A stretch of DNA of 64,000 nt, taken from positions 2,997 to 66,996 of the forward strand of contig JAFDAI010000005.1 in the NCBI GenBank assembly GCA_019313905.1. Reading direction: 5' to 3'. Of the stretch, positions 9,303 to 42,728 are shown piece after piece; the stretch's first letter is position 1; each line of letters begins with the position of its first letter. This stretch comes from Deltaproteobacteria bacterium (GTDB taxonomy: Bacteria > Desulfobacterota > Syntrophia > Syntrophales > UBA2210). The translations under genes and the position numbers were made by a program. Under the pieces are notes generated by a model. The model did no database searches. It had not been told where the DNA came from and was given only the letters and a program-made list of their open reading frames with translations.

Positions 9303-9304
9303 TC

Positions 9305-11532: not shown

Positions 11533-11603
11533 AATCTTTCCTCCTGTGAAGATTTACCTGACCGGTTTAAAATCAGTTTATCCGTTTAACGCCAAAGCCT
11601 TTC

Positions 11604-19039: not shown

Positions 19040-20452
19040 CTACAAGACATACCTGCTCAGGTCTTCATCTTCGACTACATCCTTCAGCTTATCCTTGACA
19101 TAATCGGCATCAATATTTATTTTTTTCTTCGCAACCGCAATATCCGGTGCGTCAAAAGATATCTCCTCCAAGAGTATCTCCATGACCGTGTAAAGTCTTC
19201 TGGCCCCTATATTTTCCATCTTCCCATTCACAAGCGCCGCTACCTCAGCGATCTCCTCTATGGCGTCGGACTGGAATATAAGGTCTATATCTTCAGTAGC
19301 CATCATCTCTACATACTGTTTTACCAGAGCATTGTGAGGTTCTGTCAGAATCCTTATAAAATCTTCCTTTTCAAGTGAATCAAGTTCTACCCTTATGGGA
19401 AATCTTCCCTGCAGCTCGGGAATAAGATCGGACGGTTTGGAAATACTGAACGCTCCTGCGGCGATAAAGAGTATGTGATCCGTTTTTACCATACCATACT
19501 TGGTATTTACATTGGATCCCTCCACAATGGGAAGGAGGTCTCTCTGCACACCCTCCCTGGACACATCAGGGCCCTGAGAGGAATCACCGCCCACAATCTT
19601 GTCTATTTCGTCAAGGAATATGATTCCCGATTGCTCAACCTTTTCCATCGCCGCCCTGGTGACCTTTTCCATATCGACAAGTCTCTGGGCTTCTTCATCG
19701 GCTAATATGTTTACCGCTTCAGAGACCTTGACTTTTCTTTCTTTCTTCTTCTGCGGAAACATATTTCCGAACATCTCTTTGATGTTCATCCCCATATCCT
19801 CAACGCCGGAGGTGGAAAAAATCTCTATCATGGGGCCGCTTGGGCTGTCCACAACTTCAATCTCTACAGTCCGCTCGTCCAGTTTCCCACTGCGAAACAG
19901 GCGCCGCAGCTTCTCGCGCGTTTCATTATGACGAATATCCTCCTGGACCTTTACATCACTCTCGGGCATATCCAGAAGTGTTCCTTCCGCTCCCGCTTCT
20001 GTTGCCTCTGTCTGTCCCTGATCCTTGCGCTTAAGGGGAAGGAGAATGTCAAGTATCCTCTCCTCGGCAAGTTCCATCGCTTTTGCCTTTACATTCTCCT
20101 GCTCCTCCGATTTAGCCATGTTTATTGCCAGCTCTACAAGGTCCCTGACCATTGACTCAACATCCCTGCCCACATAACCCACCTCTGTAAATTTGGAGGC
20201 CTCTATCTTCAGAAAGGGAGATTTATCAAGTTTGGCAAGCCTGCGCGCAATTTCCGTCTTTCCCACTCCCGTAGGACCTATCATTATGATATTTTTGGGT
20301 GCTATCTCTTCCCTGAGTTCTTCTGGTACATTCTGACGCCTCCACCTGTTCCGGAGGGCCACGGCAACCGCCCTCTTGGCGTCATGTTGCCCTATAATAT
20401 ACTTGTCCAGCTGGGACACAGTCTCTCTCGGTGTCAAATTCGTGGATGACAT
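19040..20452 (-). CDS. hslU: ATP-dependent protease ATPase subunit HslU
   Basis: [38 protein letters not shown]. Confidence 0.97.
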
Positions 20453-20487
20453 AAAGTTTCTACTCCTTGATTCTCAATGGTTAATTC

Positions 20488-20682
20488 TGACGTTATCGTA
20501 AAAAGTCTTTTCGTAGCGAATCCAAGCATTTTGGGGAAAAGATGCCGGCAGTGCCTGGCGTTAAGAAAATCTAACTGTTTGATCCCGCAGAAGGCGGGAG
20601 AGTTTTAGATTTTTAGCCAGGCGATGACAGTATTCCCAAAATGGTTTTGAGCGAAGAAAACCGACTTTTTACGACTGTATCA
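20488..20682. mobile_element. MITE-like element with terminal inverted repeats and internal palindrome
   Basis: Ends TGACGTTATCGTAAAAAGTC / GACTTTTTACGACTGTATCA (perfect core TCGTAAAAAGTC); nested inverted arms (CATTTTGGG/CCCAAAATG, GCCTGGC/GCCAGGC, AAAATCTAA/TTAGATTTT); related ends at 46079-46223. Confidence 0.7.
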
Positions 20683-20693
20683 ATTTTCAATGT

Positions 20694-21251
20694 TTAATTC
20701 TGAGTTGCCTCAACTACATCCAGTTCCTCTATTTTTACCCTGTCGTTCGTGAATATACATATATCAGCAGCTATGCGCATGGCCTCTTCGACAATCTCTT
20801 TCGCGTTCAGTGTAGAGTGCCCGATAAGCGCCCTTGCCGCTGCCTGGGCATATGGGCCGCCCGAACCTATTGCCAGGACCTCATCGTCCGATTCTATCAC
20901 ATCTCCATTACCTGATATTATAAGAAAATCCACGTCACTGACTGCTATCATCAGGGCTTCAAGGTGTCGCAAAACCCTGTCTGTTCTCCAATCCTTGGTC
21001 AGTTCAACCGCGGCCCTCAAAAGATTGCCGCCATACTGTTCCAGTTTCTGGTCGAACCTGTCAAAAAGGGTAAACGCGTCCGCTGTCGCACCTGCGAAAC
21101 CTACGATTACCTTGTCATGATACAACCTCCGAACTTTTCTGGCATTGTGCTTCAGGGCTATCGTATCAAGGGTCACCTGACCGTCACCAGCGACGGCCAC
21201 TTTTCCCTTGTGCTTCACTGCTACTATGGTTGTTCCTCTCATCTTATTCAT
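20694..21251 (-). CDS. hslV: ATP-dependent protease peptidase subunit HslV
   Basis: [27 protein letters not shown]. Confidence 0.97.
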
Positions 21252-22097
21252 GACTTTTGTTCTCCTCCGGCCCTCGGGTGGCTCCTGTCATATACCTCCA
21301 TCAATCTTGTCACGCTGACGGATGTGTACTTCTGGGTGGTGGAAAGGCTTTCATGCCCCAACAGTTCCTGTATGACTCTCAGATCGGCGCCTGCATCCAT
21401 GAGATGGGTCGCAAATGTGTGTCTGAGCGCGTGAGGACTTATCTTTCTGCCGATACCACTCAGGGTTATATACTTGTCTATAATTCTTCTTACACTCCTG
21501 GGAGTCAGCCTCGAACCGGACCTGTTCAGAAAAAGAGGTGATCCGGTATAACTCCCGTCCTTGTTTAACTATCCTTTCTTTTCTGCCTTTTCCCCTGACC
21601 TTCACCAGACTATTCGAAAAATCGACGTCGGCTACATTCAAACCAGTGAGTTCACCAACACGCACACCGGCTGAATACAGGAATTCGATTATGGCCCTGT
21701 CCCGCAGCCCTGATACATCCGATTCGAACTTAACTCCCAGAAGAGAGAATACTTCGTCTATACTCAGAAAGGAGGGAAGATATTTGTCCGCCTTCGGCGC
21801 CTGGACCATCTGAGCGGGATTATACCTGATTTTTCCTTCCCGAAGAAGAAATTTAAAGAACGCCCTGAGACTGGCCACTTTTCTCGACACAGTAGCCTTT
21901 TTTATCCTCCCGCGGTAGAGAGACGCAAGAAACGCTCTTATCACCGTCTGGTCAACATCGGCGGGCTTGTCCACCCCGTTCTTCAGAAGAAATTCTCTGA
22001 ACTGTCTCAGGTCGGACAGATAGTTCCTTTTTGTATGATAAGACAGGTTTCTTTCAACATCAATGTGAACACCAAAATCTCTGACGGCATCCTCCAT
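21248..22097 (-). pseudogene. xerC: Tyrosine recombinase XerC, interrupted by an internal deletion plus frameshift near 21567
   Basis: First frame: RDRAIIEFLYSAGVRVGEL...GKGRKERIV; second frame continues [12 protein letters not shown]...[13 protein letters not shown]...[16 protein letters not shown] to a stop overlapping the hslV ATG. Confidence 0.85.
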
Positions 22098-22138
22098 CCG
22101 AACATACCCTTCAGTCACCCTTCAAATCCGCTTTCCGG

Positions 22139-22639
22139 CTACATCTTATATTTTCCGAAGTCTTCGGAAGAGAGATTCTCAAGGAATTCTTTTAACTGTT
22201 CCCCTGTGTATTTGTTCAAGTCAGCCGTTTTATTGCCAAAATCGATATTTGTTGATTTCTCAATAACCTTTTCATCCACAAAGATGGGCGCGTCAGCCCT
22301 TAATGCAAGAGCAATCGCGTCGCTCGGACGTGCATCAACTGTAATGGAGACATCATCCCTCAGGATATGTATGGTTGCAAAGAAGGTGTTGTCTTTCAGG
22401 TCATTAATAACGATTTTCAGAACCTTAACTTCAAGAATTTTTAACATCTCGTTCATAAGATCATGCGTCATCGGCCTCGCCAGATTTATTTCTTCCATCT
22501 GTGTGGCTATGGCGCTTGCCTCGAACAGGCCTATCCATATGGGAATAGCCCTTTTCCCCTGCAGATCTTTCAATATTACTATGGGTGTATTTGTTATAGG
22601 ATCCATGGCAAGCCCAAATACCTTTACCTCTATAAGCAT
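22139..22639 (-). CDS. Bifunctional nuclease family protein (DUF151)
   Basis: PIWIGLFEA, RPMTHDL, DARPSDAIALALR. Confidence 0.92.
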   Translation of the reverse strand: MLIEVKVFGLAMDPITNTPIVILKDLQGKRAIPIWIGLFEASAIATQMEEINLARPMTHDLMNEMLKILEVKVLKIVINDLKDNTFFATIHILRDDVSITVDARPSDAIALALRADAPIFVDEKVIEKSTNIDFGNKTADLNKYTGEQLKEFLENLSSEDFGKYKM

Positions 22640-22648
22640 CTCTACCTC

Positions 22649-23968
22649 CTAAACCATTTCTCCTCTCAGAGAGTGCATGTGGGCCTGTACAATTCTCACA
22701 CGCACGGTTCTTCCTGTCAGGCCAATGTCACCCGCGAGATTAACAATTTTATTGCCCCTCGTCCTGCCGGTAATATCGGCGTCATTATTCTTGCTGACAC
22801 CCTCTATAAGTACATCCTTCACAATTCCCTCAAGACATCTGTTCTTTTCCAGACTGTTGCTTTCCTGAAGTGCCTGGAGCTCATATAATCTCTCACTCTT
22901 GACCCCTTCTTCAACCTTTCCATCATACCCTTCCGAAGCTGTGCCACGCCTGTCAGAATATTTAAAGGAAAAAACATTATCAAACCTTACTTCTTTCATA
23001 AGGTCAATAGTTTTTTGAAAGTCGCTGTCCCTCTCTCCCGGAAACCCGACGATGATATCTGACGTTATACTTATATCCGGGCACGCACTTTTTAACATGT
23101 CAATCTTTTTCAGATATTCCCCCGCAGTGTATCCTCTTTTCATTCTCTTCAACACATGATCAGAACCGGACTGCACCGGCAGGTGAATATGCTCACACAG
23201 ATTATCAAGATCGGCAAAACAGCCGGCAAGCCTCTCTGAAAGGTCTTTCGGGTGAGATGTGGTAAAGCGGATCCTGTCTACCCCGTCTATTTTACTGACC
23301 ATTCTCAATAATGCAGGAAAATCGGTGTCTCCAGAAAGTGTGCTGCCGTATGAATTGACGTTTTGCCCCAGGAGTGTCACCTCCCTGATGCCATTATCAG
23401 CGAGAAACCTGATTTCGTCAATTATGTCTCCGCCGGCCCTGCTTTCTTCCCTTCCCCTTACATAAGGCACAATGCAGTAGGAACAGAAATTGTTACATCC
23501 CTGCATAATTGTTACGTAGGCGCTCACATTTCCATCAGGAGGCAGGGTTCGGATGCCCAGAGATCTTACCGATTCGTGAAAAGAAGTGTCCACAACCTGG
23601 GATCCGGTATTGTTAATCTCCTCTATCATCTCGGGAAGACGGTGTATGTTATGCGTGCCAAGGACAAGATCAAGATATGGAGCTCTCCTGAAGAATCCTG
23701 TTCCATGTTCCTGGGCAAGACATCCCGCTACCCCAATAACAAGATCGGGCCTCTTTTCCCTTAGCCTTTTTAACCTTCCAAGCTGACTGTACGCTTTCTG
23801 GGCCGCTTTTCCCCTCACGCTGCAGGTGTTGACGATGATAATATCCGCCCTGTCGGCTTCATCTGTCTTGACATATCCCGCATCACTGAGAATCTGCGCC
23901 ATCTGTTCCGAGTCATGGACATTCATCTGACAGCCAAAGGTATGGATATAGAATTTTCCTGTGGACAT
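22649..23968 (-). CDS. miaB: tRNA-2-methylthio-N6-dimethylallyladenosine synthase
   Basis: TFGCQMNVHDSE, NTCSVR, GCNNFCSYC, C-terminal TRAM domain. Confidence 0.96.
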   Translation of the reverse strand: MSTGKFYIHTFGCQMNVHDSEQMAQILSDAGYVKTDEADRADIIIVNTCSVRGKAAQKAYSQLGRLKRLREKRPDLVIGVAGCLAQEHGTGFFRRAPYLDLVLGTHNIHRLPEMIEEINNTGSQVVDTSFHESVRSLGIRTLPPDGNVSAYVTIMQGCNNFCSYCIVPYVRGREESRAGGDIIDEIRFLADNGIREVTLLGQNVNSYGSTLSGDTDFPALLRMVSKIDGVDRIRFTTSHPKDLSERLAGCFADLDNLCEHIHLPVQSGSDHVLKRMKRGYTAGEYLKKIDMLKSACPDISITSDIIVGFPGERDSDFQKTIDLMKEVRFDNVFSFKYSDRRGTASEGYDGKVEEGVKSERLYELQALQESNSLEKNRCLEGIVKDVLIEGVSKNNDADITGRTRGNKIVNLAGDIGLTGRTVRVRIVQAHMHSLRGEMV

Positions 23969-24061
23969 AAAAGATACCCGCGTGCGTTAGCAAGAATTAA
24001 TGTTGGAGAAAATACTTGGAGAAATACAGATACCGACGATAATATCTTCGCCCTTAAAATG

Positions 24062-24088
24062 AAAAAGAGGGGGACTGCGCCCCCTCTT
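24062..24088 (-). terminator. Rho-independent terminator after ihfB
   Basis: AAGAGGGGG / CCCCCTCTT stem with U-tract on the minus strand. Confidence 0.6.
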
Positions 24089-24155
24089 GACTGCAATATA
24101 AGCCTATGACTCGATTTCCAGAATTTATTTACAAGAGATAAAAATATCGCACTAT

Positions 24156-24437
24156 TTATTTCCCGGAATTTACTCTTTCCTTGAGCTCTTTACCTACCTT
24201 GAAAAAGGGTAGCTTCTTGGAATCCACCTGTATAGTCCCGCCCGTCTTGGGATTCCTCCCGGTATATGAGCCGTAGTCTCTTACGACAAAACTCCCGAAC
24301 CCTCTGATCTCTATCCTGCCCCCATTCTTGAGCTGATCGCTGAACCCCTTGAAGATCAGACCTACTACATCTGCAGCCTGCTTTTCTGTCAGCCCATCTC
24401 TCTTACTCAAAGCATCTACCAATTCCGATTTATTCAT
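24156..24437 (-). CDS. ihfB: Integration host factor beta / HU family
   Basis: MNKSELV, RIEIRGFGSF, GRNPKTG, PFFKVGKELKERVN. Confidence 0.85.
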   Translation of the reverse strand: MNKSELVDALSKRDGLTEKQAADVVGLIFKGFSDQLKNGGRIEIRGFGSFVVRDYGSYTGRNPKTGGTIQVDSKKLPFFKVGKELKERVNSGK

Positions 24438-29068: not shown

Positions 29069-29102
29069 AAAAAAAGGGAGGCGAACAGGCCGCCTCCCTT
29101 TT
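29069..29102 (-). terminator. Rho-independent terminator after pilA
   Basis: AAAAGGGAGGCG / CGCCTCCCTTTT perfect stem with U-tract. Confidence 0.8.
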
Positions 29103-29175: not shown

Positions 29176-29562
29176 TCAGCCCCCTTTGACAGCCGATGTA
29201 ATGGTGCCGTTTGCGTCAACCGAATAGACCAATGTGCCGTTGGCAGGCGTAGAGGTCATTACAAGGCCGGCCATGGTGCCCGTGGTAACCGCTGTAGTCA
29301 CATTGGCACTTGCCTTGAAACCGTTAGTCTGCAGGAGAGCTAAAGTTACAGTCCCTGTTGGATTTTCCGCAAAGTATGCCTGTGCCGCCGTGTAGGCATT
29401 TTTTACATCCGAGTTTGCCTGTGCGTTGAAACCCTTTGCCCTGTACGCCGAAAACTGCGGGATGGCGATTGCCGCCAGGATACCAATAATCGCGATGACG
29501 ATCATCAGTTCAATCAGTGTAAAACCCTTTTGTCCTTTTCTTCCGTTTAATTTCATCAACAT
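29176..29562 (-). CDS. pilA: Type IVa major pilin, Geobacter/Syntrophus-like
   Basis: Basic leader ...KGQKG|FTLIELMIVIAIIGILAAIAIPQFSAYR; monocistronic with RBS, sigma54 site and terminator. Confidence 0.93.
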   Translation of the reverse strand: MLMKLNGRKGQKGFTLIELMIVIAIIGILAAIAIPQFSAYRAKGFNAQANSDVKNAYTAAQAYFAENPTGTVTLALLQTNGFKASANVTTAVTTGTMAGLVMTSTPANGTLVYSVDANGTITSAVKGG

Positions 29563-29908: not shown

Positions 29909-31519
29909 TCAAAAATAGATTGCAGGCCTTAACAGCAGGGGGGCTCCGATGTTGCCCAGATCTATGATGAAATGGCACACTACGCATGGAACAATGCTTT
30001 CATTTTTCTCCTTAATCAACCCCAGAAGCATCCCGTACAAAAAGGCAAACGAGGCAAACTGCAGGCCGCCTATAAAATAATGTGGAAGGGCATAGACCGC
30101 GCTTTGTATGACATTAACAAAAAGTGTCGACCTGACGAATTTCCTGAGGAGTTCAAAAAGAGTAAGCCTGTAGAAAATTTCCTCGCTGAACGCGTTCAGC
30201 AGGCTGAGAATGATAACGGGCAACCAGACGGCCGTCCTTGAACTATCCACGGGATTTCTCATGAGCAGATACATTGAATACCAGGAGCTGATGATAATTC
30301 CGACAAAAAATACATTTGAAAATTTTTTCCAGGCAAACTGTTTCACAAATGGAATCCTTGCCCATTTGAGCCACAAAAGGGACAACCATGCCAGGATAAA
30401 CAGCGGCAGGTAAGTCATTATACTGGCATACACCGTGGCCAATCTGGCGGAACCGGTAAATGGCCACCTGACATAACCGCGGCTGACCAGATACAAAACA
30501 GCACCCATGAAAACAAACATGCAAACCAGATATGAAACCAGTGGAAAATACCGGTTCATCCGCGATCTCAGCAATAAATTACGGGGCTTATGCTCCGTTT
30601 TGATTCCAGATGGCAACGGGCCTAAAAGGACTTCCGAAGAAGGCGCCAAATATCGCGGGTTTTTTTGTGTGAGCAGCAGGATAAGAGTGCCCGTCATTAT
30701 AAAAATGAGCATGATGAGCTGAGGCTGGGTGAGACCGAATGCCTCTATCCTGTTCGTTCTGATAAATTCCATAAGGAACCTGACAGTACCATACAGAACC
30801 AGGTATCCCCCTACTACCCCACCCTTATTTCGTATAAGACCAAAGGGCCACGCGAGCCACTCGCGAATCCGTATGAAAAGGCCTGCCTGATCAGACAAGA
30901 CCCCGGATGCCACTTTTTGAACAACCCCACCTATGTAAATTCGGTTGTAAATCCGGCTTAAAATAAAAAATATGGTCAGATTGGCCAGGATTGCGTAAAG
31001 GGGGACAGGATTTGTAAAGGAGAAGTGGCTGCCAAAGACAGTGAAGCTGAGGGGTTTTCCCCAGCAGCAGCCAGCGGATAAACATCCCAGCCTACCGATC
31101 GCGTGCGCCAGGGGCACGTGCATAAAAGCCATGTCAACGACGCGCATCTCAGCAAACCGGAAAAGAACTGTTAGAAGGAAAAAAAAGGCCACAGGCAGAA
31201 TCAGACTGGCGTGGAAGGTGTGAAGGGTACCGGAGGTAATTTGGGTGTAAAACAGTTCCAGGCTCCAGCTTTTCAAAGGATAGTGCAAAATGCCCCCCGC
31301 CCTGCTGCTTATATAACCGAGGGGGAAAAAGAAGAGGGCCATCATAAGGACGAAAGAGGTAACCTTTCGCTTCGGATAGCCCGCCTGCAACATCCTTCTG
31401 TAAAAGAAAAAAGAAGCGGTAAAGATGCCGAGCAGGATAAAAAAATAGTAAACCGCGTTTACGATCGAGAGGACCTGGTGATAATCAAAAAGATACCGCT
31501 GAAGGACAAACTTGAGCAC
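29909..31519 (-). CDS. Fusion of an Lgt-like diacylglyceryl transferase domain and a CPBP (type II CAAX/Abi) intramembrane protease
   Basis: N-half: TFHAS, IGRLGCLSAGCCWG, YGTVRFLMEFIR; C-half: SEEIFYR, YALPH, CHFIID. Confidence 0.8.
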   Translation of the reverse strand: MLKFVLQRYLFDYHQVLSIVNAVYYFFILLGIFTASFFFYRRMLQAGYPKRKVTSFVLMMALFFFPLGYISSRAGGILHYPLKSWSLELFYTQITSGTLHTFHASLILPVAFFFLLTVLFRFAEMRVVDMAFMHVPLAHAIGRLGCLSAGCCWGKPLSFTVFGSHFSFTNPVPLYAILANLTIFFILSRIYNRIYIGGVVQKVASGVLSDQAGLFIRIREWLAWPFGLIRNKGGVVGGYLVLYGTVRFLMEFIRTNRIEAFGLTQPQLIMLIFIMTGTLILLLTQKNPRYLAPSSEVLLGPLPSGIKTEHKPRNLLLRSRMNRYFPLVSYLVCMFVFMGAVLYLVSRGYVRWPFTGSARLATVYASIMTYLPLFILAWLSLLWLKWARIPFVKQFAWKKFSNVFFVGIIISSWYSMYLLMRNPVDSSRTAVWLPVIILSLLNAFSEEIFYRLTLFELLRKFVRSTLFVNVIQSAVYALPHYFIGGLQFASFAFLYGMLLGLIKEKNESIVPCVVCHFIIDLGNIGAPLLLRPAIYF

Positions 31520-31697: not shown

Positions 31698-31729
31698 AAA
31701 AAAGTCCCGGCCGGACCGGGACCCTTTTT
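31698..31729. terminator. Hairpin terminator after the 1078-aa pilin-like gene
   Basis: GTCCCGG / CCGGGAC stem flanked by A6 and T5 tracts. Confidence 0.6.
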
Positions 31730-31762: not shown

Positions 31763-34700
31763 CTACTGGGCCATTATTCCCGGAAATGCCACCGCACCCC
31801 CTACTCCCTGAATAAATCTCCAGGCAAAGTCGTCAAAATAGACGGTTTCTCTGTCATCAACCTGAATATCGGCATTTGCGTTGATACCGAGGGTGTGCGC
31901 ACCGAACTCCGGGATGTCCTGTGTGTTGAAATTATAGTCTTCAGTCGTGAATGTTGGCGAATATACTATCGTCGGGTTACCACCACCGTCATAGCCGATT
32001 TCCACCAGCTTGTGAGTAACCGCTCCACACCCGAGGATGGAGTGAGTGATCGTTTTACTGGTATAGGCCTTCTTTTTATCGGCAAGTCCTCTTCCCCAGA
32101 TGACCTGGGTGAAATAATCACCTTGATCGGGCCACTTGATAATGCCCCTGTCCAACTTCTTTCTGTTCAGATCGGTCGAAGATGCGTTACCGAAAGATGT
32201 ACCGACATCGTTGTCGGGACTTGCGAAAAAGGCGGTCAGGGCATTCACTCTTTGCTCGGGGTTATCAGGATTACAATCGGACACCATCTCGTAGATGTTC
32301 ACCATAATGGTAATCCATTCCCTGGGATATATTCGATAGTTGTAAATCGCCTTGTCCGTCTGATTGGTGGTGGCGGGAGGCCTGATGTAACCCACAGGGC
32401 CACTCGCCCCTCCGGCAACCGGTTTCCCGATCGGGTCCTCCTCGCTTACGGTAGCCGGGTCCCTCACCACTTCCGCCCCGGGAAGCCCGAGCACTGTAAT
32501 ATCCTCTACCTCATAAGTTTTGAAAAGGCCGTAGATATCGGTGATCTTCCAGACCAGTATCGGCGTTCCTCCGCTTCCTTCATAAATGACCTCGACGTTT
32601 TGGGTCCCGTCCCAAACAGTTTCATAGTACACATATACCTCTTCGTGGCCCACCAGGGGCGCGTATGCCATCCGTTCCCAGGGAGAATAGGAGCCACACC
32701 CTCCCGAATCAGTGGCATCTTTCTGCCACAGGACGAGGTAGGGAATTCCATCAAATGGAGGGGTATCGTCCCAGTGGCTTTCCTGGAAACCCTCGCAATT
32801 GACAGGATCCGCAACCGTTGTCGAACCATGATCGTCATAGATTGAGTCGGGGATATCGTCGTTTTCAGTGTAATAAGTTTCCTCGCCGCACCCAGACCCT
32901 TCGACATGCTCGGCCCTGCCCTGTATGCCTCTCATGATGGAGAGCCCGTAGTAGGAATATCCACTGTCGCCAGAAACCAGTTTAACCCTGAAGGACAACC
33001 CGGGCATGTAGTTTCCCGGATGGTTCAACGGATCAGTTTCTGAAAGATCGTCTTCCACGTCTGTAAAGCGGATCTTGGTCTGGAGATCATATCTGAGTTT
33101 CTGTTCCGATTCATTCCACAGGGTCTGCAATGGATTGGTACCGGAACCCCAGTCAACAGCGCCCAGGCTTTCCTCCATATAGACATCTTCAGGCACAAAA
33201 GCTGAGATGACCTGTTCGGTTCCGGTCACCTTTATGGCCATGTCTCCATCAATCTCTTCTCCGGCGTGTGACCCGATTATGGATCTGACATTGTCAGGGG
33301 TCATCTCACCCTCAATAGTTCTGTAAAGTTCCATCACGCTCAGGGGTTGAAAAAGGGTTATGGACCTCGAAACCGAATCGCTCCCCATATTGACCGTCCC
33401 TGTTGAGGTGAACCTGGCAAACTCATTAAATGTCATGACCGTCTGGTCAGTTAGCGAACGGGTAAAGGGGGGAACACCCGGGGGACAGTGCAAACCGGTG
33501 AGTCTCCCGTTGTCTGTATCCAGATAATCGTACTGCAAGAAAAGCTCGGTGCCTTCCGGAGTCACTATGGTAAAAGTCCCCTGTACCCTGGGCAAAATTG
33601 TCAGATTGCCACTTATAGCGAGGTTGCTTGTCGATTGCGCTCCACAACTCGCGGGAGAGATTGTCTGATCACCGTTTACCTTCGCAGCCGGGTATACGGG
33701 GGCATTATCCACGGGAGTGCCGCTGGCGCTCGTACTCAAAGTAAATGTAACGGAAGAGCCGTCTACCGAGTAACCGGAATATGGCACGGTTTCATATGTT
33801 GAACCGGATGCATCGGGCACCGCGACGCGCAGGTCTCCGCTTTCAGTACCGGCTCCCGCGACAAAGTTGGAGGGTAAATTTACGGTCCCGATACCGCCAG
33901 GAGGTGTGACAACAAGGCTGTTGACCGTGGAATTCACGCTTAAAGACTCCTCAAACCAGTTCAGCTCCATGCTGAGCCTGAATTGATCGTTGTCCACAGG
34001 GATGGATTGATTCAGGAATAAGGAATCCATAAGATCCTGTCGATTGATGTTGAAATTGGCATCCCTGTGTTCCACGACCCTGCTGACCGCGTAATTCAGC
34101 CCGGATTGTGCCAGGTACTGGGCCTTTTGCGCATATGCAAACCTGATCGTGCCCGTGCTGGAAGAGCTGAAAAGGGAGACCATGGCGGCCCCCAGAATAC
34201 CTATGATGACTATTGTCACGATCACCCCTATAAGTATGGAGCCTGATCGACCCACAGGCAGGTAAAGTTTCAGGCCTTCAAACGTTCCGTGCCTTTTGAG
34301 CAACATGAAGAGTATCCAGCCGAGAAGGATAATCATGATCAGACCGGCTTTGTGGCACCAGGTAGCAGTCATCGTTCCCCTATCCTCAAATCCGGCTATA
34401 GCCACAAAACATCCGGGGGTTGTGGTCCCGGTACTTCCCGTTGGAACTGAGTAGCCGCTAAAGCCCTGCGGGACATAGACGTTTGAGGGCAAAATCTCGT
34501 CCACAAAAGTCATGCTTGTTCCTTCCGATGCGCTCAAACTCATTGAGATGCCTATGCGGGAAAGATCGCTGAGCCTGTCCGAGATCGACCAGGCATTCCT
34601 TGAATAATCGAGGTAGGTCAAGGAAAATGCCGACACATTGTCAGCCAATGTAAAGAAATTGCTGTAACCGTCGTAATCGCTGCTTTTAACCTGAAGTGTG

Positions 34701-34999
34701 TTCCCCGACAATCGAAAGGTTTCATCTATAAGTCTTCCATCCGGGCTCCGTCTTTCAATGGTGATCGTGCCAGTCCCCGCCGCGCTGATGGAAGTGAGAT
34801 TCTGCAGAGACATCCTCAAACGGGTCATGGCCAGCTGATTTGTCTGCGTAAGCGCGGCTGAATCCTTGGCGAAAAGGAAGGCATTGGTCATCTGGACAAT
34901 TCCAAGGCCGGCTACGGCTGACATGACAGAAACGATAAGCAAGGACACGATTATCTCGATAAGAGTAAAACCTTTATTTTTTCTGAACGGCATTTGCAT
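31763..34999 (-). CDS. 1078-aa pilin-like protein: PilW/PulJ-like pilin, GCF-TM segment, PilX-like pilin and large acidic extracellular domain
   Basis: N-terminal KNKG|FTLIE; PGCFVAIAG at Cys197 followed by a TM helix and KRH; second prepilin-like site GRSG|SILIGVIVTIVIIGILGAAM at Gly253 and AQKAQYLAQSGLNYA. Confidence 0.8.
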   Translation of the reverse strand: MQMPFRKNKGFTLIEIIVSLLIVSVMSAVAGLGIVQMTNAFLFAKDSAALTQTNQLAMTRLRMSLQNLTSISAAGTGTITIERRSPDGRLIDETFRLSGNTLQVKSSDYDGYSNFFTLADNVSAFSLTYLDYSRNAWSISDRLSDLSRIGISMSLSASEGTSMTFVDEILPSNVYVPQGFSGYSVPTGSTGTTTPGCFVAIAGFEDRGTMTATWCHKAGLIMIILLGWILFMLLKRHGTFEGLKLYLPVGRSGSILIGVIVTIVIIGILGAAMVSLFSSSSTGTIRFAYAQKAQYLAQSGLNYAVSRVVEHRDANFNINRQDLMDSLFLNQSIPVDNDQFRLSMELNWFEESLSVNSTVNSLVVTPPGGIGTVNLPSNFVAGAGTESGDLRVAVPDASGSTYETVPYSGYSVDGSSVTFTLSTSASGTPVDNAPVYPAAKVNGDQTISPASCGAQSTSNLAISGNLTILPRVQGTFTIVTPEGTELFLQYDYLDTDNGRLTGLHCPPGVPPFTRSLTDQTVMTFNEFARFTSTGTVNMGSDSVSRSITLFQPLSVMELYRTIEGEMTPDNVRSIIGSHAGEEIDGDMAIKVTGTEQVISAFVPEDVYMEESLGAVDWGSGTNPLQTLWNESEQKLRYDLQTKIRFTDVEDDLSETDPLNHPGNYMPGLSFRVKLVSGDSGYSYYGLSIMRGIQGRAEHVEGSGCGEETYYTENDDIPDSIYDDHGSTTVADPVNCEGFQESHWDDTPPFDGIPYLVLWQKDATDSGGCGSYSPWERMAYAPLVGHEEVYVYYETVWDGTQNVEVIYEGSGGTPILVWKITDIYGLFKTYEVEDITVLGLPGAEVVRDPATVSEEDPIGKPVAGGASGPVGYIRPPATTNQTDKAIYNYRIYPREWITIMVNIYEMVSDCNPDNPEQRVNALTAFFASPDNDVGTSFGNASSTDLNRKKLDRGIIKWPDQGDYFTQVIWGRGLADKKKAYTSKTITHSILGCGAVTHKLVEIGYDGGGNPTIVYSPTFTTEDYNFNTQDIPEFGAHTLGINANADIQVDDRETVYFDDFAWRFIQGVGGAVAFPGIMAQ

Positions 35000-35025: not shown

Positions 35026-35442
35026 CTATATTTCAATGCTTCCAAACAACAGTGCGTAGGTCAGACCGGATGACCCGGTTATAGTAACTTTTAAAAGGTC
35101 ACTGGAACTCCCCTCAACAGGAGTCCCGCCAGATCCGTAACCTGTTGCACCGGCTGTAACGGATATTCCTATTCCAGAGGCAGTGACATCGAAAAGTCCG
35201 CCGGTTATATTAGTTTGTAAGTCACTGATGCTGCCCAGTTCCCGGTATGCCCGCGAAATACTATCGGCCACCTGGTTCATGGCATGAACTTCCATGGTCT
35301 GAATCGCAGGCTGGGTGCTCCGGGTGAACACTCCACCCATCATTGAGACCAACATGGCCCCCAATATCGAGGTGATAATCAATGTCACGATTACTTCCAA
35401 CAAGGTAAAGCCTTCATGATTTCCCAATACTTCAGTTTTCAT
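35026..35442 (-). CDS. Minor pilin (PilV/PulI-like)
   Basis: HEG|FTLLEVIVTLIITSILG. Confidence 0.85.
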   Translation of the reverse strand: MKTEVLGNHEGFTLLEVIVTLIITSILGAMLVSMMGGVFTRSTQPAIQTMEVHAMNQVADSISRAYRELGSISDLQTNITGGLFDVTASGIGISVTAGATGYGSGGTPVEGSSSDLLKVTITGSSGLTYALLFGSIEI

Positions 35443-35963
35443 AATATAAATCCTGTATACGGAGTAATGTTGATAGCTCTTAACTCTAACCCTTCAGAGA
35501 CGTTTATGGGTGCGGCTGCTGTCAATCTCACGGTCGCACCGGCGTCCGTACAGGGAGACCCCCAATTTTCAAAGGAATATGTAAAGTCGGAAACCGAAAG
35601 ACCATATCCGGCAAGATCGACATCGAGATCATCCTCACCTGGCAGCTGTTTTTTTGTATTTATATTTCCACCAGTAAAGAGCCAGTACTTGTTCTGGAAA
35701 GAGTGAATCCCCCACACGTCATTTGAACTCATGCTCTTCATCTGGGCGTATCGCAGATGAGACTTCAGGATTTCCGTTCGTGCCACCAGTTCCGAATGAT
35801 GATCTGTAGCTCTCACCGCGACAAACGCGGAGACTATTCCAATCAAGACCAAAACAGCGATTACCTCTATCAAAGTAAATCCTGATTTATTTGTCCTTTT
35901 GCCTGGACCGGAACTATTTTTAATCATTGTTGCCCCTTTTCTGTTGAGGTCTTTAGCCGACAT
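35439..35963 (-). CDS. Minor pilin (FimT/GspH-like)
   Basis: NKSG|FTLIEVIAVLVLIG...LKSHLRYAQMKSM; start may be at 35927. Confidence 0.85.
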   Translation of the reverse strand: MSAKDLNRKGATMIKNSSGPGKRTNKSGFTLIEVIAVLVLIGIVSAFVAVRATDHHSELVARTEILKSHLRYAQMKSMSSNDVWGIHSFQNKYWLFTGGNINTKKQLPGEDDLDVDLAGYGLSVSDFTYSFENWGSPCTDAGATVRLTAAAPINVSEGLELRAINITPYTGFIL

Positions 35964-37541: not shown

Positions 37542-37823
37542 TTAAGCTTCTATCCGTTTTTTGATGAGACTGTAAACTTCTTTTCGATGGATTATACCGA
37601 GAATTAAAATATCGTCACCGGAAACTTTAAAAACAACACGGTAATCTCCGACTCTTAACTTCCAGTATCCCTTAAGGGTTCTTTGCAACGGTTTCCCATA
37701 GGCTTCAGGTTGCGTGGCAAGCCGATCTTCTATGGCTCTTTTGATCATACCCCTGTTTTTAACATCAATTTTCGGCAGGTCAGATCTCTTGACATCCGGA
37801 TGGTATTTGAGTTTGTATGCCAT
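37542..37823 (-). CDS. RelE/ParE family toxin
   Basis: YGKPLQRTLKGYWKLRVGDYRVVF...IIHRKEVY. Confidence 0.9.
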   Translation of the reverse strand: MAYKLKYHPDVKRSDLPKIDVKNRGMIKRAIEDRLATQPEAYGKPLQRTLKGYWKLRVGDYRVVFKVSGDDILILGIIHRKEVYSLIKKRIEA

Positions 37824-37846
37824 TGCCTTTTCACAAGAGCTGAGCT

Positions 37847-38074
37847 TTAAGACCATACATCATCATGGCTTAGCGCCTTAGAGTCATTCCATGATTTTTC
37901 CCTTTTTTCGGCAAATCCGGAAAGGGCGATATCCTCTTGAATCTCCATGGCCTCTTTGAGCAAATCTCTGACCTTAGCGGACAATGAAACATTATCCTTC
38001 TCTGCCAGAAGTCGGACATCATGGTAAAGTAAATTGTTCAGGACTACATTTATACGTGGATTTTGAGCCGGCAT
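37847..38074 (-). CDS. Antitoxin (RHH/RelB-like)
   Basis: MPAQNPRINVVL...SLSAKVRDLLKEA...LSHDDVW; immediately upstream of the toxin. Confidence 0.85.
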   Translation of the reverse strand: MPAQNPRINVVLNNLLYHDVRLLAEKDNVSLSAKVRDLLKEAMEIQEDIALSGFAEKREKSWNDSKALSHDDVWS

Positions 38075-38310
38075 GATCTTTTCCTCCGAATAAAATTGAG
38101 AATAAGTGTAACAGTGGTGACACACCATGTCAAATTAAAAAATAGGTGGGGTCAGACCCCATGACCCAACTGGAATATTGTCAAGACAATTTTCCATAGT
38201 TATAGAATATTGTCGATAGAGGAGTTAAGTGACCAGCTATTAGCGGAGAAACAGTAGATTCTCGTACCAAACATGGCTTCGAAATGCGCCGTATCCCCAC
38301 TTTTTCCTAA

Positions 38311-38488: not shown

Positions 38489-39373
38489 ATGCCGGATATA
38501 ACCATCATTATCCCAGCATACCGCGAAGAAAAAGTGATTCCCGATGTCGTCGGAAGAATACTCCGCGTAATGGATGCGACGGGTCGGGATTATGAGATAA
38601 TAGTGATAGATGACGGGTCAGACGATAAGACAGCCGCGGAGGCAGGAAGTGCCGGCGCTCGCGTAATATCCCACCCATACAATATCGGTAACGGAGCTGC
38701 GGTAAAGACCGGGATCAGAAACGCGAAGGGTAAGATTCTGGTCACACTTGACGGGGACGGCCAGCATTCGCCCGAAGACATACCCCGCCTGCTGGAAAAG
38801 ATGGATGCCTATGACATGGTGGTCGGCGCGCGAACGCGCGATTCGGAGGCCTCTTTCCACAGAACCATGGTAAACAGGATCTACAACTGGTTCGCCACAT
38901 ACATGTGCAAACGCAGGATCGAAGACCTGACATCGGGTTTCAGGGCGATAAAAACGGACATTGCCAGCCGCTTTGTCTCCCTGCTGCCCAACACCTTTTC
39001 CTATCCGACAACCATTACAATGGCAGTGGTACGCTCCGGATACAGTCTCGTGTACGTTCCGATAAAGACAACTCGCCGCGTGGGAAAAAGCAAAATCAAG
39101 CTGGTAAAAGACGGCTCCCGTTTTCTTTTGATCATTATCAAGATTGCCACACTTTTTTCACCCATGAGGATTTTTCTGCCCGTTAGTACGACCATGTTCC
39201 TTGCGGGACTGGGCTATGGTCTTTTCAAGATATTCTTCATAGGAGGACAGTACGGCCCTACCTCCGCCATGCTGATGACAGTAGCCGTTGTGATATTCAT
39301 GGTGGGACTTGTATCAGAACAGGTGGCACAGTTGAGGTTTGACAGAGCAGAAATTTACGATGACAAAAATTGA
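38489..39373 (+). CDS. GT2 glycosyltransferase (polyprenol-phosphate-sugar synthase / DPM1-like) with C-terminal TMs
   Basis: IIPAYRE, IDDGSDD, NIGNGAAV, DGDGQH, DLTSGFRA. Confidence 0.9.
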   Translation: MPDITIIIPAYREEKVIPDVVGRILRVMDATGRDYEIIVIDDGSDDKTAAEAGSAGARVISHPYNIGNGAAVKTGIRNAKGKILVTLDGDGQHSPEDIPRLLEKMDAYDMVVGARTRDSEASFHRTMVNRIYNWFATYMCKRRIEDLTSGFRAIKTDIASRFVSLLPNTFSYPTTITMAVVRSGYSLVYVPIKTTRRVGKSKIKLVKDGSRFLLIIIKIATLFSPMRIFLPVSTTMFLAGLGYGLFKIFFIGGQYGPTSAMLMTVAVVIFMVGLVSEQVAQLRFDRAEIYDDKN

Positions 39374-39417
39374 ACAACCTTTTCCTATATATTCACTTTC
39401 AGTGGAGTTGATCAATA

Positions 39418-40575
39418 GTGCTGTCTAAAAAGAATAACCTGCTTGTAACCACATCTACTTTCTGGAGATGGAAGGGTGATGTAATCCCCTCGTTTGTATA
39501 TGATCTAAGCAAACGTTTGGCAAAAGATTTTGATATTTGGGTGCTGGCTCCACATTCCAGGGGAGCGGCAATATCCGAACAATTGGACGGATTAAATATC
39601 TTCAGATACAAGTATTATTTTAACAAATATCAATACTTGGGTGAGAAAGCAATCCTTCCTAATTTAAGAAGAAATCCCTTTTTATGGCTACAGGTACCCT
39701 TTTTTCTTATTGCGCAATTACTTGCAATCAAAAAAATAGCGAAAAAACATAACATTTACCTTATACATGCTCATTGGATAATACCACAGGGGATCATAGC
39801 TGTTTTATATAAATTCTTCTTCAATAGAAATGTTAAGATAGTTGTTACAAGCCACGGAACTTTGAACAATATTGACCGCCTGACTGTTGTCAGTTCGGCT
39901 ATAAAAGATGAAGTTGTGTCTTTAGGAATAAACAGAAATCTGCCTATTGATGTCGTACCGATGGGTGTTGATTTCTCACTCTTCAGTCCGGAACATTTTA
40001 ACGAAAGCATAAAGAAAAAATATTCTATTAATGGCCCTTTTCTTCTTTTTGTAGGACGACTCTCTGAAAAAAAAGGCATTGAATATTTAATCAAGGCTAT
40101 GCCCTCCATTCTCCTTGATTTTCCGGAGACAAAGCTGTTGATAATCGGCGAAGGAGAAAAAGAGTTTGATCTCAAGTCTCTTTCAGAAAAATTAAACCTA
40201 ATGGATAAATCGGTTATTTTTGCGGGTGCAATATCAAATGAGAATCTTCCTCAATATTATGCTACAGCGGATATTTTTATTAATCCCTCCTATTCTGAAG
40301 GATTCGGCCTTGTTTTTGTTGAAGCTATTGGTAGTGGGACCTACACAATTGGTACGGATTTGCCTGCCATATCAGATATTATAAAAGAAGGGAAAACGGG
40401 GTTCATAGTAAAACAGAAAGATTCAGAACAGATTGCGGATAAGGTTAAATTCATTCTTTCAAACAAATCGAAACTCATAAATATAAAGCACAAGGCCAGG
40501 AAAATAATAATTAAGAAGTTTGATTGGAATATTATTTCTAAAATATATAAACAAATATTAGCGTGTGTTAAATGA
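39418..40575 (+). CDS. GT4 glycosyltransferase (apparent short in-frame deletion)
   Basis: HAHWIIPQG, FVGRLSEKKG, EGFGLVFVEA. Confidence 0.88.
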   Translation: MLSKKNNLLVTTSTFWRWKGDVIPSFVYDLSKRLAKDFDIWVLAPHSRGAAISEQLDGLNIFRYKYYFNKYQYLGEKAILPNLRRNPFLWLQVPFFLIAQLLAIKKIAKKHNIYLIHAHWIIPQGIIAVLYKFFFNRNVKIVVTSHGTLNNIDRLTVVSSAIKDEVVSLGINRNLPIDVVPMGVDFSLFSPEHFNESIKKKYSINGPFLLFVGRLSEKKGIEYLIKAMPSILLDFPETKLLIIGEGEKEFDLKSLSEKLNLMDKSVIFAGAISNENLPQYYATADIFINPSYSEGFGLVFVEAIGSGTYTIGTDLPAISDIIKEGKTGFIVKQKDSEQIADKVKFILSNKSKLINIKHKARKIIIKKFDWNIISKIYKQILACVK

Positions 40576-40842
40576 GTTGCAATAATGTTTTCCGCAGAAA
40601 GGGAGAGCGGGGTTGAAGTCGTATAGAAACAATTTTTTGATTGATCGCATAAAAAACCCCTTAAAGCGATTTTATTGTCATGAAATACAAGGTTTCTCTT
40701 GAGTTTTCCGTCAATGCAAAACAGCAAAGAAGATTATCACAGACAAATTTTACTAAAGTGTAACATCGAATGACAGCGAGTTTTCTGTGTGCTGATTTTA
40801 AAAAGGAAAAGCTGAAATCAATTTTTCGGATAAGGTGGTAAT

Positions 40843-41724
40843 ATGAAAATAGAATATCAACTGATTAAAGATGGATTAATGATTATGAAAAGGTTTGGAA
40901 TACGACATGCCATACGAAGAACAAAAGACTTAATTCTAGTTAAAAAAGAAGAGAAAAGAAGGGCTAAGCTATATAATAAGATTAAGCCTGAGGGAACAAT
41001 AATAAGAGAAATTATCGGCAGTAAGATGAAGCTGGATATGAGTGACCAGGGAATACATAGGGATTTGTTTCTAGATGGCATACGGGAACCGGTTGCAACA
41101 AAACATTTAATGGGTGTTCTGACAAAAAACGATGTGGTGTTGGATATAGGAGCAAATATAGGCTATTACACCCTCCTGGAAGCCAAACTATGTAAGAAGG
41201 TTTATGCCGTTGAACCAGTCCTAAGTAATGTGGTTGTTCTCAAAGACAACATAAAGTTAAATCATTATAACAATGTGGAAGTTTCTAGTTTGGCCTTTGG
41301 TAAAGCCACAGGGATAGAAAAGATGTACTTGTCGCCAAAGAGTAATTGGCATAGCTTTTACCCGATAAAAAATATGGTTGGAGAAGCGAAAATCAACGTT
41401 GACACCGTTGATAATTTTCTTAAAGACAGAGAAGATCCAACAATCGTAAGGATGGACGTTGAAGGATACGAATTGAACATATTGTATGGCATGACAGAGA
41501 CTTTAAAAAAGATAGATAGATTATTCATGGAAATCCACGCTGATATAATGAGTCTGGAAGATACGAAAAGATTGATTGAGATATTAAACAGTGAAGGTTT
41601 CTTCCCGGAACTGATTATAAAATATGACAGACCAGGTCTAAGCAGGATCTTGCCTGACGATTATATTGGCAAAATTTATAAGGGAGATAAAGGTGGATAC
41701 GAGGTTTTTTTCAGAAAAAAATAA
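40843..41724 (+). CDS. FkbM family methyltransferase
   Basis: VLDIGANIGYYT, YAVEP, RMDVEGYE. Confidence 0.9.
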   Translation: MKIEYQLIKDGLMIMKRFGIRHAIRRTKDLILVKKEEKRRAKLYNKIKPEGTIIREIIGSKMKLDMSDQGIHRDLFLDGIREPVATKHLMGVLTKNDVVLDIGANIGYYTLLEAKLCKKVYAVEPVLSNVVVLKDNIKLNHYNNVEVSSLAFGKATGIEKMYLSPKSNWHSFYPIKNMVGEAKINVDTVDNFLKDREDPTIVRMDVEGYELNILYGMTETLKKIDRLFMEIHADIMSLEDTKRLIEILNSEGFFPELIIKYDRPGLSRILPDDYIGKIYKGDKGGYEVFFRKK

Positions 41725-41732
41725 ATAGTCGT

Positions 41733-42728
41733 TTGAAATTCAACCCCCTATGCCATTCCAATCTATATAAGAAAGTTGATATGAGAAAAAAACGCATATG
41801 GCCTCTTATCACAATAGTATCTATTGCGGCCTTAATAATAATATATATCTATCATCACCCTTATTCCCTTGAACCTTTTAAAGATGTTAGTCCCTCTATC
41901 CTCATTTGTTTAATAATCAGCAGAATTTTGTTCCAAATAACAAACGGGCTTATATTGCGAGAAGTTGCATCCAAGTTTAATATAGTACTGACTATAAAGG
42001 AATGGTTTGGTCTTCCCTTTGTTACAGCCATGGGGAATTATATAACGCCCTTTTCCGGTGGTATGATTGCCCGGGCATCATATCTGAAGTACCGCCATAA
42101 TTTCTCTTATGCGCAGTTTGTATCGGTTCTTGGAGCAAGCTTCCTGATATTCTTCTGGATAGCCGGCATGACAGGCATAATTACTCTTATATTGTCTCTT
42201 GAGAGGTCAGCGATCTACTGGCAGTTAATTTTCTTTTTTGGAGCGGTTGTCCTAAGCATTTCAATGGTCGCCATTCTCCCTTCTGTAAAGCTGCCCGGCA
42301 ATAACAGACTGTCAACACTTATAAATAACTCACTTGAAGGATGGGATTTCATAAAAAGCGACCTGTTTCTTTTAACCAAACTCGCCCTGTATACACTTGC
42401 AAACATTTTTATAAACGGGATCTCCTTCTGGCTGGCATTTGTTGCACTGTATGGAACTTCTTTATCAGTTGGAAAGGCTTTTCTAATCAGCCTGTTTTCG
42501 ACCTTTTCCATTCTTGTGAGAATAACGCCTGGCAATTTAGGGGTTTTTGAGAGTATTGTCAGCCTTAGCTCTGGAATTTTAGGGGTTGGCGTTAGCCCTG
42601 GTTTAATGGTATCCCTGCTCATCAGGGCGGCTTCCATGATTCCTATCTTCACCCTGGGCCCGATCTTCAGTTTTGTGCTTACACGTGAATTAGCGGGTAA
42701 TAAAAGAAGAAATGACGATGATAACTAA
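41733..42728 (+). CDS. Flippase-like membrane protein (lysylphosphatidylglycerol synthase TM / YbhN family)
   Basis: Multi-TM; NYITPFSGG..ARASYLK; ITPGNLGVFE; start possibly MRKKRIW at 41781. Confidence 0.8.
   Translation: MKFNPLCHSNLYKKVDMRKKRIWPLITIVSIAALIIIYIYHHPYSLEPFKDVSPSILICLIISRILFQITNGLILREVASKFNIVLTIKEWFGLPFVTAMGNYITPFSGGMIARASYLKYRHNFSYAQFVSVLGASFLIFFWIAGMTGIITLILSLERSAIYWQLIFFFGAVVLSISMVAILPSVKLPGNNRLSTLINNSLEGWDFIKSDLFLLTKLALYTLANIFINGISFWLAFVALYGTSLSVGKAFLISLFSTFSILVRITPGNLGVFESIVSLSSGILGVGVSPGLMVSLLIRAASMIPIFTLGPIFSFVLTRELAGNKRRNDDDN

Follow-up and report, generated by a model that had tools for sequence, protein, structure and literature searches.

MYXO-CTERM, JDVT-CTERM and Synerg-CTERM are C-terminal signals of surface proteins that carry an invariant Cys and have known or predicted CPBP proteases; to our knowledge, the enzyme that is presumed to lipidate the Cys of such signals has never been identified. 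The CPBP enzymes studied so far deal with lipidated cysteines, Rce1 and MmRce1 cutting only once the Cys has been prenylated, and all the characterised ones that we know of act on proteins or bind them; SpdC of Staphylococcus aureus is not known to have the catalytic glutamates. The myxosortases MrtX, MrtP, MrtJ and MrtS have been presented as CPBP proteases for Cys-containing C-terminal signals (bioRxiv 10.1101/2023.06.07.544157; the words 'Lgt' and 'fusion' do not occur in this preprint). MrtX cuts MYXO-CTERM, and another paper proposes that an 'Lgt-like acyl-transferase', still to be identified, lipidates this signal before the cut, Lgt itself being the foremost candidate (PMC11980579). Here we describe a gene that encodes an Lgt-like lipid transferase and a CPBP protease in a single chain. 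It lies in a stretch of 64,000 nucleotides (hereafter the window; positions 2,997 to 66,996 of the forward strand of contig JAFDAI010000005.1, assembly GCA_019313905.1) from a deltaproteobacterium of the family UBA2210, order Syntrophales. We propose, with somewhat less than even confidence, that the fused gene encodes a two-step enzyme that would lipidate a Cys beside a membrane helix and then cut the chain. The architecture is a combination of the known Lgt and CPBP families for which we know of no earlier description: a full-text search of the literature, with subscription journals outside its coverage, found no description of it, and a first-pass annotation of the window, drawn up from the sequence alone, likewise knew of no characterised example.

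The gene (29909..31519, minus strand) is a single open reading frame of 536 amino acids that runs from a GTG start (VLKF...), shared with two congeners in which a ribosome-binding site precedes it, to a stop codon at 29909-29911. Its Lgt-like domain takes up approximately residues 1-290 (30650..31519, minus strand) and matches Pfam LGT (PF01790) over residues 23-192 and a second stretch, with an E-value of 3.5e-21 and 76.1 bits against a cut-off of 24.9. A basic linker of approximately residues 291-320 (30560..30649, minus strand), predicted to be cytoplasmic by the positive-inside rule, leads to the CPBP or Rce1-like domain, approximately residues 321-536 (29912..30559, minus strand), in which PF02517 matches residues 431-521 (E 6.4e-15, 55.7 bits against a cut-off of 22.4). 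In the NCBIfam scan of the fused protein no model exceeded its cut-off. The motifs listed in the first-pass annotation are all in their places, namely HTFHAS (H103), AIGRLGC (R143), NPVPLYA (170-176) and RFLMEFIR (R247, E251, R254) in the first half and SEEIFYR (E446, E447, R451), YALPH (H480) and HFIID (H516, D520) in the second. The same annotation had proposed a scan for both Pfam domains and a structure prediction as checks on its idea of one polypeptide joining the two enzymes, and the outcome of both agrees with it. We modelled the protein with AlphaFold2 from 23 members of the family. The model reaches a mean predicted local distance difference test score (pLDDT) of 84.6 and a predicted template modelling score of 0.64, and is weak at residues 199-209, in the linker (295-318, where pLDDT is below 50) and at 533-536. 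Compared structurally with VIA, residues 12-289 of the model match the seven-helix fold of E. coli Lgt (5azb; Z 17.6, 231 residues aligned, root-mean-square deviation 4.8), residues 326-527 match MmRce1 (4cad, chain 4cad_L; Z 13.3, 184 aligned, root-mean-square deviation 3.4), and the next unrelated rows have Z of at most 5.8. Foldseek gave the same two structures (5azb at E 6.9e-5, 4cad with a probability of 0.96). A sequence search of the PDB with the fused protein as single query gave no match at E <= 1, and the family profile finds 5azb.

Both halves look catalytically competent, judging from the residues that the family retains. We counted conservation over an alignment of 23 members. In the Lgt-like half, D129 and G154 are invariant, and at least 90% of the members share H103, R143, C146, C151, C152, W153, N170, P171, Y243, R247, E251 and R254. 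Aligned through the family profile with E. coli Lgt (5azb), the domain matches H103, D129, R143, G154, Y235, R239, E243 and R246 of that enzyme, so that H103 (codon 31211-31213), R143 (31091-31093) and R247 (30779-30781, all minus strand) of the fused protein align with the catalytic His and Arg pair (H103, R143 and R239). According to work on E. coli Lgt, mutants of H103, R143 and E151 are inactive, R143 binds the lipid donor, E151 is proposed to choose phosphatidylglycerol and H103 to bind the peptide substrate (PMC4728403). Beside the common fold and residues there are differences from E. coli Lgt (5azb/5azc): N146, E151 and L152 are each replaced by Cys (C146, C151 and C152 of the fused protein, 31064-31084, minus strand), H196 by Asn, and the domain has a protease as partner and is a paralogue beside a canonical lgt.

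Measured against housekeeping models, the domain stands apart. The Lgt equivalog NF000778 gives 40.5 bits with a cut-off of 334, TIGR00544 is not listed, and the housekeeping signature G-R-x-G-N-F-x-N-x-E-x-x-G is replaced by GRLGCLSAGCCWG. The loss of this signature is no argument against Lgt-like chemistry, since the Cys variant is the best or sole Lgt of five complete Acidobacteriota chromosomes: the Cys-type protein is the best Lgt match in all five, and in 4/5 there is no other Lgt-family gene. The pattern C[FL]xAGCCWG occurs in 106 stand-alone Lgts of about 265 residues, mostly from Acidobacteriota records, and their signature (GRLGCFAAGCCWG) is nearly the same as that of the fused protein. 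The Cys-rich GRLGCxxAGCCWG is therefore not the mark of an odd Lgt, and it would fit normal Lgt chemistry. The Acidobacteriota proteins differ from the fused domain in standing alone, in being the sole or best Lgt of their genomes, in keeping HPxQLYE and in forming a separate clade in a quick tree. The feature that does set the fused clade apart is NPxPLY (NPVPLY in the window, 30995-31012, minus strand), found where both kinds of housekeeping Lgt have HPxQLYE; the first-pass annotation had seen this replacement, and it turns out to be particular to the fused clade. There are also Cys-type Lgt paralogues of other kinds: proteins of 389-526 residues with GRLACxxxGCCYG (L129, on contig C78 of genome G127, and L130, on contig C50 of G157), in genomes that also have a canonical lgt, and a 282-residue paralogue with FNRVGCFLNGCCYG beside a PAP2 gene (L119/L128, contig C82 of G146). 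Lgt fusions with other partners are listed in the ESM Atlas, one with an O-methyltransferase (290 members, in Acidobacteriota) and one with a HAD phosphatase (981 members, in Bacillota).

In the CPBP half, the three motifs EExxxR, xxxH and HxxxD/N are all present, and E446 and E447 (codons 30179-30184), R451, H480 (30080-30082), H516 (29972-29974) and D520 (29960-29962, all minus strand) are invariant in 23/23 aligned members. Rce1 of the eukaryotic CAAX pathway and the archaeal CAAX protease MmRce1 have the same CPBP fold and motifs, and in that pathway, as we propose for the fused protein, lipidation by another enzyme comes first and the CPBP cut after. A difference is that in eukaryotes a soluble enzyme of the cytosol attaches the lipid, which is a prenyl group, whereas the presumed transferase of the fused protein is a relative of Lgt, with a site that would face the periplasm, and is part of the same polypeptide as the CPBP half. 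LnsB and SpdC of S. aureus belong to the CPBP family too and act on, or together with, lipoproteins and proteins of the envelope. LnsB is reported to take part in lipoprotein N-acylation (PMC7387801), and the CPBP half of our model matches SpdC (6u0o, chain 6u0o_A) with a VIA Z of 12.5; neither of them is fused to Lgt, and the fused protein retains all CPBP motifs. The myxosortases share with it the family, a proposed two-step model in which an Lgt-like enzyme acts first, and a link to type II secretion or pilin-like systems. They differ in that the fused protein falls under every myxosortase cut-off (MrtS 36.8 bits with a cut-off of 130, MrtJ 31.1 with 75, MrtP 26.5 with 250, Mrt_core, NF040914, 24.4 with 100). 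These matches are generic, because three other CPBP proteins of the genome score as well on the same models (39.2, 33.0 and 27.1 bits). MYXO-CTERM (TIGR03901) and Synerg-CTERM (TIGR04564) were found in 0/11 fusion-bearing genomes, in a search in which the control genomes gave no match either.

The fused frame is real. A word-indexed search returned 36 proteins, 32 of them with both Pfam domains, 484-540 residues long and 33-100% identical to the query; the 32 clusters of fused homologues come from ENA, NCBI, JGI and Logan assemblies, and nine of 524-540 residues are 58-88% identical. An exhaustive search of representatives gave 54 proteins at E <= 1e-30, including Lgt-like-only matches of about 265 residues and CPBP-only matches of about 217. 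In genome and metagenome contigs we collected 22 loci that encode the Lgt-like and the CPBP parts: that of the window, L008-L017, L131-L135 and those in six genomes of its family. In 4/22 of them (L013, L014, L017 and L135) the halves are separate genes, adjacent or overlapping. In a tree of the Lgt-like parts, obtained by a quick maximum-likelihood search that flagged long branches, fused and split forms make one clade (98 in the Shimodaira-Hasegawa-like approximate likelihood ratio test) with the split forms nested inside, a clade to which neither the Lgts of Acidobacteriota nor the order's own housekeeping Lgts belong. Repeated fusion or fission thus ties the Lgt-like and CPBP activities together. 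The existence of split forms in other genomes is the one point in favour of two genes having been joined by an assembly or sequencing error, the refuting condition named by the first-pass annotation; such an artefact is excluded, its probability being negligible in our view, because fused homologues come from independent assemblies and the split forms fall in the same clade, and four congeners share the fused frame, with a linker free of any stop or change of frame. Nor is this the only lgt of its genome (2.45 Mb in 171 contigs, 98.8% complete and 5.05% contaminated), another point on which the annotation had wanted certainty: a canonical lgt lies on contig C73 (19343-20107) with 240.6 bits to Pfam and the classical signature GRIGNFLNGELYG, lspA is on C164, and there are three further CPBP genes. 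Since canonical lgt and lspA are also in the genome, the fused gene is an accessory paralogue.

Such an accessory is rare and patchy in its distribution, yet conserved. Only 2/151 genomes of the window's order match at E <= 1e-20, the second through the Lgt part alone, and among 401 sampled genomes of the phylum 28 match, both domains being spanned only in the window's own. In the window's family, the fused gene is present in 7/38 genomes: that of the window, four congeners (72-87% identity) and two of another genus (39-46%). Further afield, a species-representative collection gave ten two-domain loci in Desulfobacterales-type and Spirochaete metagenome-assembled genomes (MAGs), and the ESM Atlas has one cluster of 54 members with both domains in all. 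Four DNA sequencing runs contain just 0.05 of the sampled words, and no RNA run was listed.

The neighbourhood of the fused gene in the window is a pilin cluster. On one strand, in order, come an extracytoplasmic function (ECF) sigma factor, a 196-residue protein of no known family, two minor pilins of 174 and 138 residues (35026..35963, minus strand; N_methyl and GspH-like matches), a 1078-residue protein (31763..34999, minus strand), the fused gene, a PilA-like major pilin of 128 residues without Cys (29176..29562, minus strand), and a strong terminator-like hairpin (29072-29102); the PilA-like gene has the same place in congener G566. The 1078-residue protein (N_methyl, PF07963) is itself a fusion of minor pilins, with a PilW-like part from 1 to about 190, a junction, a PilX-like helix at 254-277 and a large domain. 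The junction (residues 190-250; 34250..34432, minus strand) consists of a T/S/G-rich linker, the motif GCFVAIAGF with Cys197 (34409-34411), a membrane helix at 218-234 and the basic residues KRH. With such a junction between its halves, and with the fused gene directly after it, the 1078-residue protein is a candidate substrate. The junction shares CF(I/V)A, the helix and the basic residues with the CFI-box-CTERM signal (NF041770, cut-off 40 bits), a term that no paper in our full-text search uses; it is unlike that signal in being short, without the middle of about 45 residues, under threshold (no match at E <= 0.01 as a protein or at E <= 0.1 in a genome scan) and internal instead of C-terminal. 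In a Desulfobacterium MAG (L016), a 1206-residue homologue, to which the window's protein is 35% identical over its full length, is followed after 11 bp by a fused enzyme 38% identical to that of the window, and the L016 junction exceeds the NF041770 cut-off with 55.5 and 61.1 bits, which makes it a bona fide CFI-box-CTERM.

Relatives of the pilin protein occur in 76/151 genomes of the order, and a CFI-type Cys-Phe with helix and basic residues stands at the joint in 9/9 fused forms (the window, G566, G573, G146, G157, G156, G127, G087 and G007). Where the pilin protein is split (G137 and G038, 2/2 read), the first gene ends just ahead of the joint position. The joint thus has the make-up of a sorting signal; in 13 genomes the NF041770 match falls exactly between two pilin-like matches, in a frame of more than 1000 residues, and a 310-residue frame of G138 that carries the pilin part has the CFI-box as its true C-terminus. 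Fused PilW-like and PilX/PilY-like minor pilins are found in many genomes of the order, for instance at L102, L103, L106, L107, L109 and L113. In the genus, the enzyme directly follows an orthologue of the pilin protein (69-88% identical) in 5/5 genomes that have the gene (the window, G566, G569, G570 and G573), and 9/9 congeners without the enzyme have no such orthologue, their best relative being 34% identical (G157). In G146, which also has a canonical lgt, the Cys-type paralogue with FNRVGCFLNGCCYG (89 bits, 282 residues) and its PAP2 gene lie convergent, about 20 bp from a similar pilin gene, and in G157 a UbiA-family prenyltransferase gene is one gene away from the pilin gene, past a 318-residue gene of no known family.

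Putting both sides together, we picture the protein as an accessory bifunctional inner-membrane enzyme that would work beside the housekeeping Lgt/LspA pathway. The Lgt-like half would place a diacylglyceryl-type lipid onto a Cys thiol at the periplasmic end of a client's membrane helix, and the CPBP half, as a glutamate intramembrane protease, would cut next to the lipidated Cys. We infer each of these catalytic steps, together with the client, the donor of the lipid and the sequence in which the steps would occur. In the genus, the likeliest client would be the 1078-residue minor-pilin neighbour, with its halves joined by GCF(V/I/A)xxAGF, a membrane helix and basic residues; a cut at this joint would separate two pilin-like proteins and leave the lipid on the new C-terminal end of the first. 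That the pilin junction really is the client here we consider possible, though rather doubtful. We would give a similarly low chance to the wider idea that the fusion is a 'Rosetta stone' for the missing sorting step, with Lgt-type lipidation followed by CPBP removal of the helix. In the genus the signal would then have a place without precedent, inside a polyprotein of two pilins, where it would serve as their cleavable joint. The 'lipidate then cleave' function suggested by the first-pass annotation survives in part: the fusion is real, the catalytic residues are kept, and the published model wants an Lgt-like step, so that a fit with that model, itself unproven, is plausible; the myxosortase resemblance is generic.

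A series of observations weighs against the two-step enzyme. The first concerns the Lgt-like half: 2/23 members (P0060 and P0072) have lost R143 and R247, P0060 also H103, while all CPBP motifs are kept, and a protein of 887 residues with an extra N-terminal domain (P0055) combines a degenerate Lgt-like part with an intact CPBP. In these three proteins the Lgt-like part is dead, so that transfer of lipid by this domain cannot be a requirement in every member. They would suit a protein in which the CPBP half is the sole working part, whether protease, immunity protein or scaffold, and the Lgt-like half merely binds lipid or a Cys lipidated by the housekeeping Lgt, as would the invariance of the CPBP motifs and the match to SpdC, a CPBP-fold chain solved together with the enzyme SagB. 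We find this improbable: the catalytic residues of Lgt, Arg pair and His among them, are retained in 21/23 members, and a mere anchoring role is hard to square with purifying selection on these residues.

The link with the pilin junction is also open to objection. Because the five congeners may all belong to a single lineage, the 5/5 association in the genus does not amount to five independent events. Between the pilin gene and the fused gene there is a terminator-like GC hairpin with a T-run (31703..31722, minus strand). It is conserved in two congeners, G566 and G573, with the GTG about 20 nt further on; in both, nothing but this hairpin, a ribosome-binding site and the GTG occupies the 86-88 bp that separate the genes. 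The fused gene is probably transcribed by read-through from the pilin operon. A complex prediction of the enzyme with pilin residues 170-250, made without control runs, scored 0.00 and counts neither for nor against the link. CFI-box-CTERM proteins occur in 68/151 genomes of the order and the fused enzyme in none of those 68, nor in any of the 13 with a CFI-box joint in a long pilin frame (0/13), so that the enzyme is not needed for CFI-box junctions in general. Conversely, NF041770 exceeds its cut-off in 1/10 other fusion-bearing genomes and not in the window's genome. We have therefore set the CFI-box aside as a general client.

Other candidate clients and enzymes were tried and rejected as well. 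The DNA pattern for CFIATA gave two matches in 10 genomes, both in non-coding frames. On contig C136 of the window's genome (25405-27051, minus strand; L259), a 548-residue secreted repeat protein ends in DDDDDSCCFIATASGRSG (CCFIATASG), followed by a helix and RGKKVW, and so has a short C-terminal sorting signal of the Cys type in textbook form. Its gene lies within a TonB-receptor and ABC-transporter cluster; it cannot be a conserved client, because it is found in 1/38 family genomes and is not co-inherited with the enzyme, and the contig could be contamination. On C165, outside the window (19315-24242; L004, L088), a 225-residue CPBP gene and a gene for a 491-residue membrane protein are flanked, inside a type II secretion cluster, by gspF/G/H-like genes on one side and gspI-like genes on the other. 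The 491-residue protein, and frames of about 500 residues in six other genomes, weakly match the middle of the CFI-box model (FRD...YY..P, 18-30 bits); as the CFI-box enzyme, the CPBP gene was dropped, being present in 9/151 genomes of the order and occurring both with and without CFI-box proteins. The C-terminal GGC[DE] of the PETase-like neighbours discussed below (L255, L131) was set aside as a tag, given that cutinase/PETase-type hydrolases have a C-terminal disulfide, and G566 does not retain the C-terminal ...YSCNVG of the 196-residue protein that is encoded upstream of the pilins.

The contexts of the remaining loci also count against the two-step enzyme. Pilin genes are nearby in 6/22 loci, and 16/22 have none; the two-step reading, plausible as it is, draws on the architecture and on the neighbourhood of those six loci. 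In 4 loci (L012, L013, L014 and L017, at approximately 7760-11850 in each), all in Desulfobacterales MAGs, which are anaerobes, a neutral ceramidase lies directly upstream with gaps of 8-94 bp (Pfam was checked for L012, 543 bits, and the other three were assigned by sequence likeness). L012, where TetR was checked among these four, also has a TetR gene divergently upstream. In three loci an HGSNAT/acyltransferase-3 gene (HGSNAT_cat/Acyl_transf_3) is directly downstream, two (L255, L131) have a PETase-like hydrolase upstream, and L254 has a TetR with a YsiA-like C-terminal domain. The two Spirochaete loci show an MFS/spermidine-synthase/TPR gene, DUF1189 and MORN genes, and the remaining loci share nothing. 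These non-pilin contexts speak for protein sorting no more than for lipid metabolism or a second lipoprotein pathway.

The first of these alternatives would make the fused protein a lipid-remodelling or scavenging enzyme with a non-protein acceptor, moving diacylglyceryl or glycerophosphate between lipids, its CPBP half being a hydrolase or a pathway partner, under fatty-acid-sensing TetR control and together with secreted lipid hydrolases. The ceramidases, the divergent and YsiA-like TetRs and the PETase-like esterases would all be at home in such a pathway, as would the PAP2 gene that adjoins the Lgt-like paralogue of G146 and the replacement of E151, the head-group-selecting residue of E. 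coli Lgt. We hold it to be fairly unlikely: the same change of E151 to Cys is found in the sole Lgts of Acidobacteriota, the proposed peptide-binding H103 is kept, the characterised CPBP enzymes that we know of work on proteins or bind them, and the pilin context is left unexplained.

A lipoprotein-maturation module acting on the N-terminal lipobox-type signals of a few special lipoproteins has, in our opinion, a comparably small chance of being correct. Here the Lgt-like half would lipidate the Cys, the CPBP half would replace LspA or, in the manner of LnsB, help to modify the N-terminus, and the HGSNAT/acyltransferase-3 neighbour would N-acylate or N-acetylate it. The retained Lgt fold and residues, with what the sequence suggests is a normal Lgt topology, agree with it, as do the part taken by an S. 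aureus CPBP-family protein in lipoprotein N-acylation, the PETase-like neighbour in L255, which begins with a lipobox-like ...FAYGC, and L135, where the genes are followed by a 1864-residue protein with ...LLCTAC. With canonical lgt and lspA present, though, a second module is not obviously needed; the ceramidase neighbours have ordinary signal peptides, without Cys in 3/4 loci, the pilin neighbours have no lipobox, and no lipoprotein neighbour is common to the loci.

Some further features of the genome and of the window deserve mention beside the sorting signals described above. Three PEP-CTERM-like ends (VPEP/IPEP, helix, RRR) and one PGF-CTERM-like end (MPGFG, helix, HKKN, in a 761-residue protein) are found at C36:52853-53491, C69:6790-7437, C96:7692-7907 and C167:43-2328, so the genome probably also has an exosortase-type sorting system. 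In the window, a run of genes on the plus strand (38489-44844) that includes a stretch of low GC (40001-42000, 0.344 against approximately 0.46) is probably a cluster for a surface polysaccharide that the genome has acquired. It encodes an FkbM methyltransferase, glycosyltransferases of families 2 and 4, a TPR protein and an LPG-synthase-TM-like protein. Between the pilin and glycosyltransferase clusters (37542-38128, minus strand), a ParE-family toxin gene of 104 residues overlaps the upstream gene of 93 residues by 10 bases, and the two are probably a type II toxin-antitoxin pair.

The conserved Lgt-CPBP fusion and its matching split form turn the guess of an Lgt-like step, as put forward in the published model (PMC11980579), into a testable case, with one gene, an adjoining candidate client and point mutants for each step. 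Even if one of the alternatives holds, be it a second lipoprotein pathway or lipid remodelling, the fused gene would still be an uncharacterised accessory use of the Lgt fold. Beyond the enzyme, many genomes use the CFI-box signal to join the parts of fused minor-pilin proteins. If the two-step enzyme is true, an Lgt-type enzyme, and not an unrelated acyltransferase, would lipidate the Cys of a signal made of Cys, helix and basic tail, and processing would give a minor pilin lipidated at its C-terminal end and a separate PilX/PilY-like tip protein. Lgt paralogues may be a general source of protein lipidation outside the lipobox.

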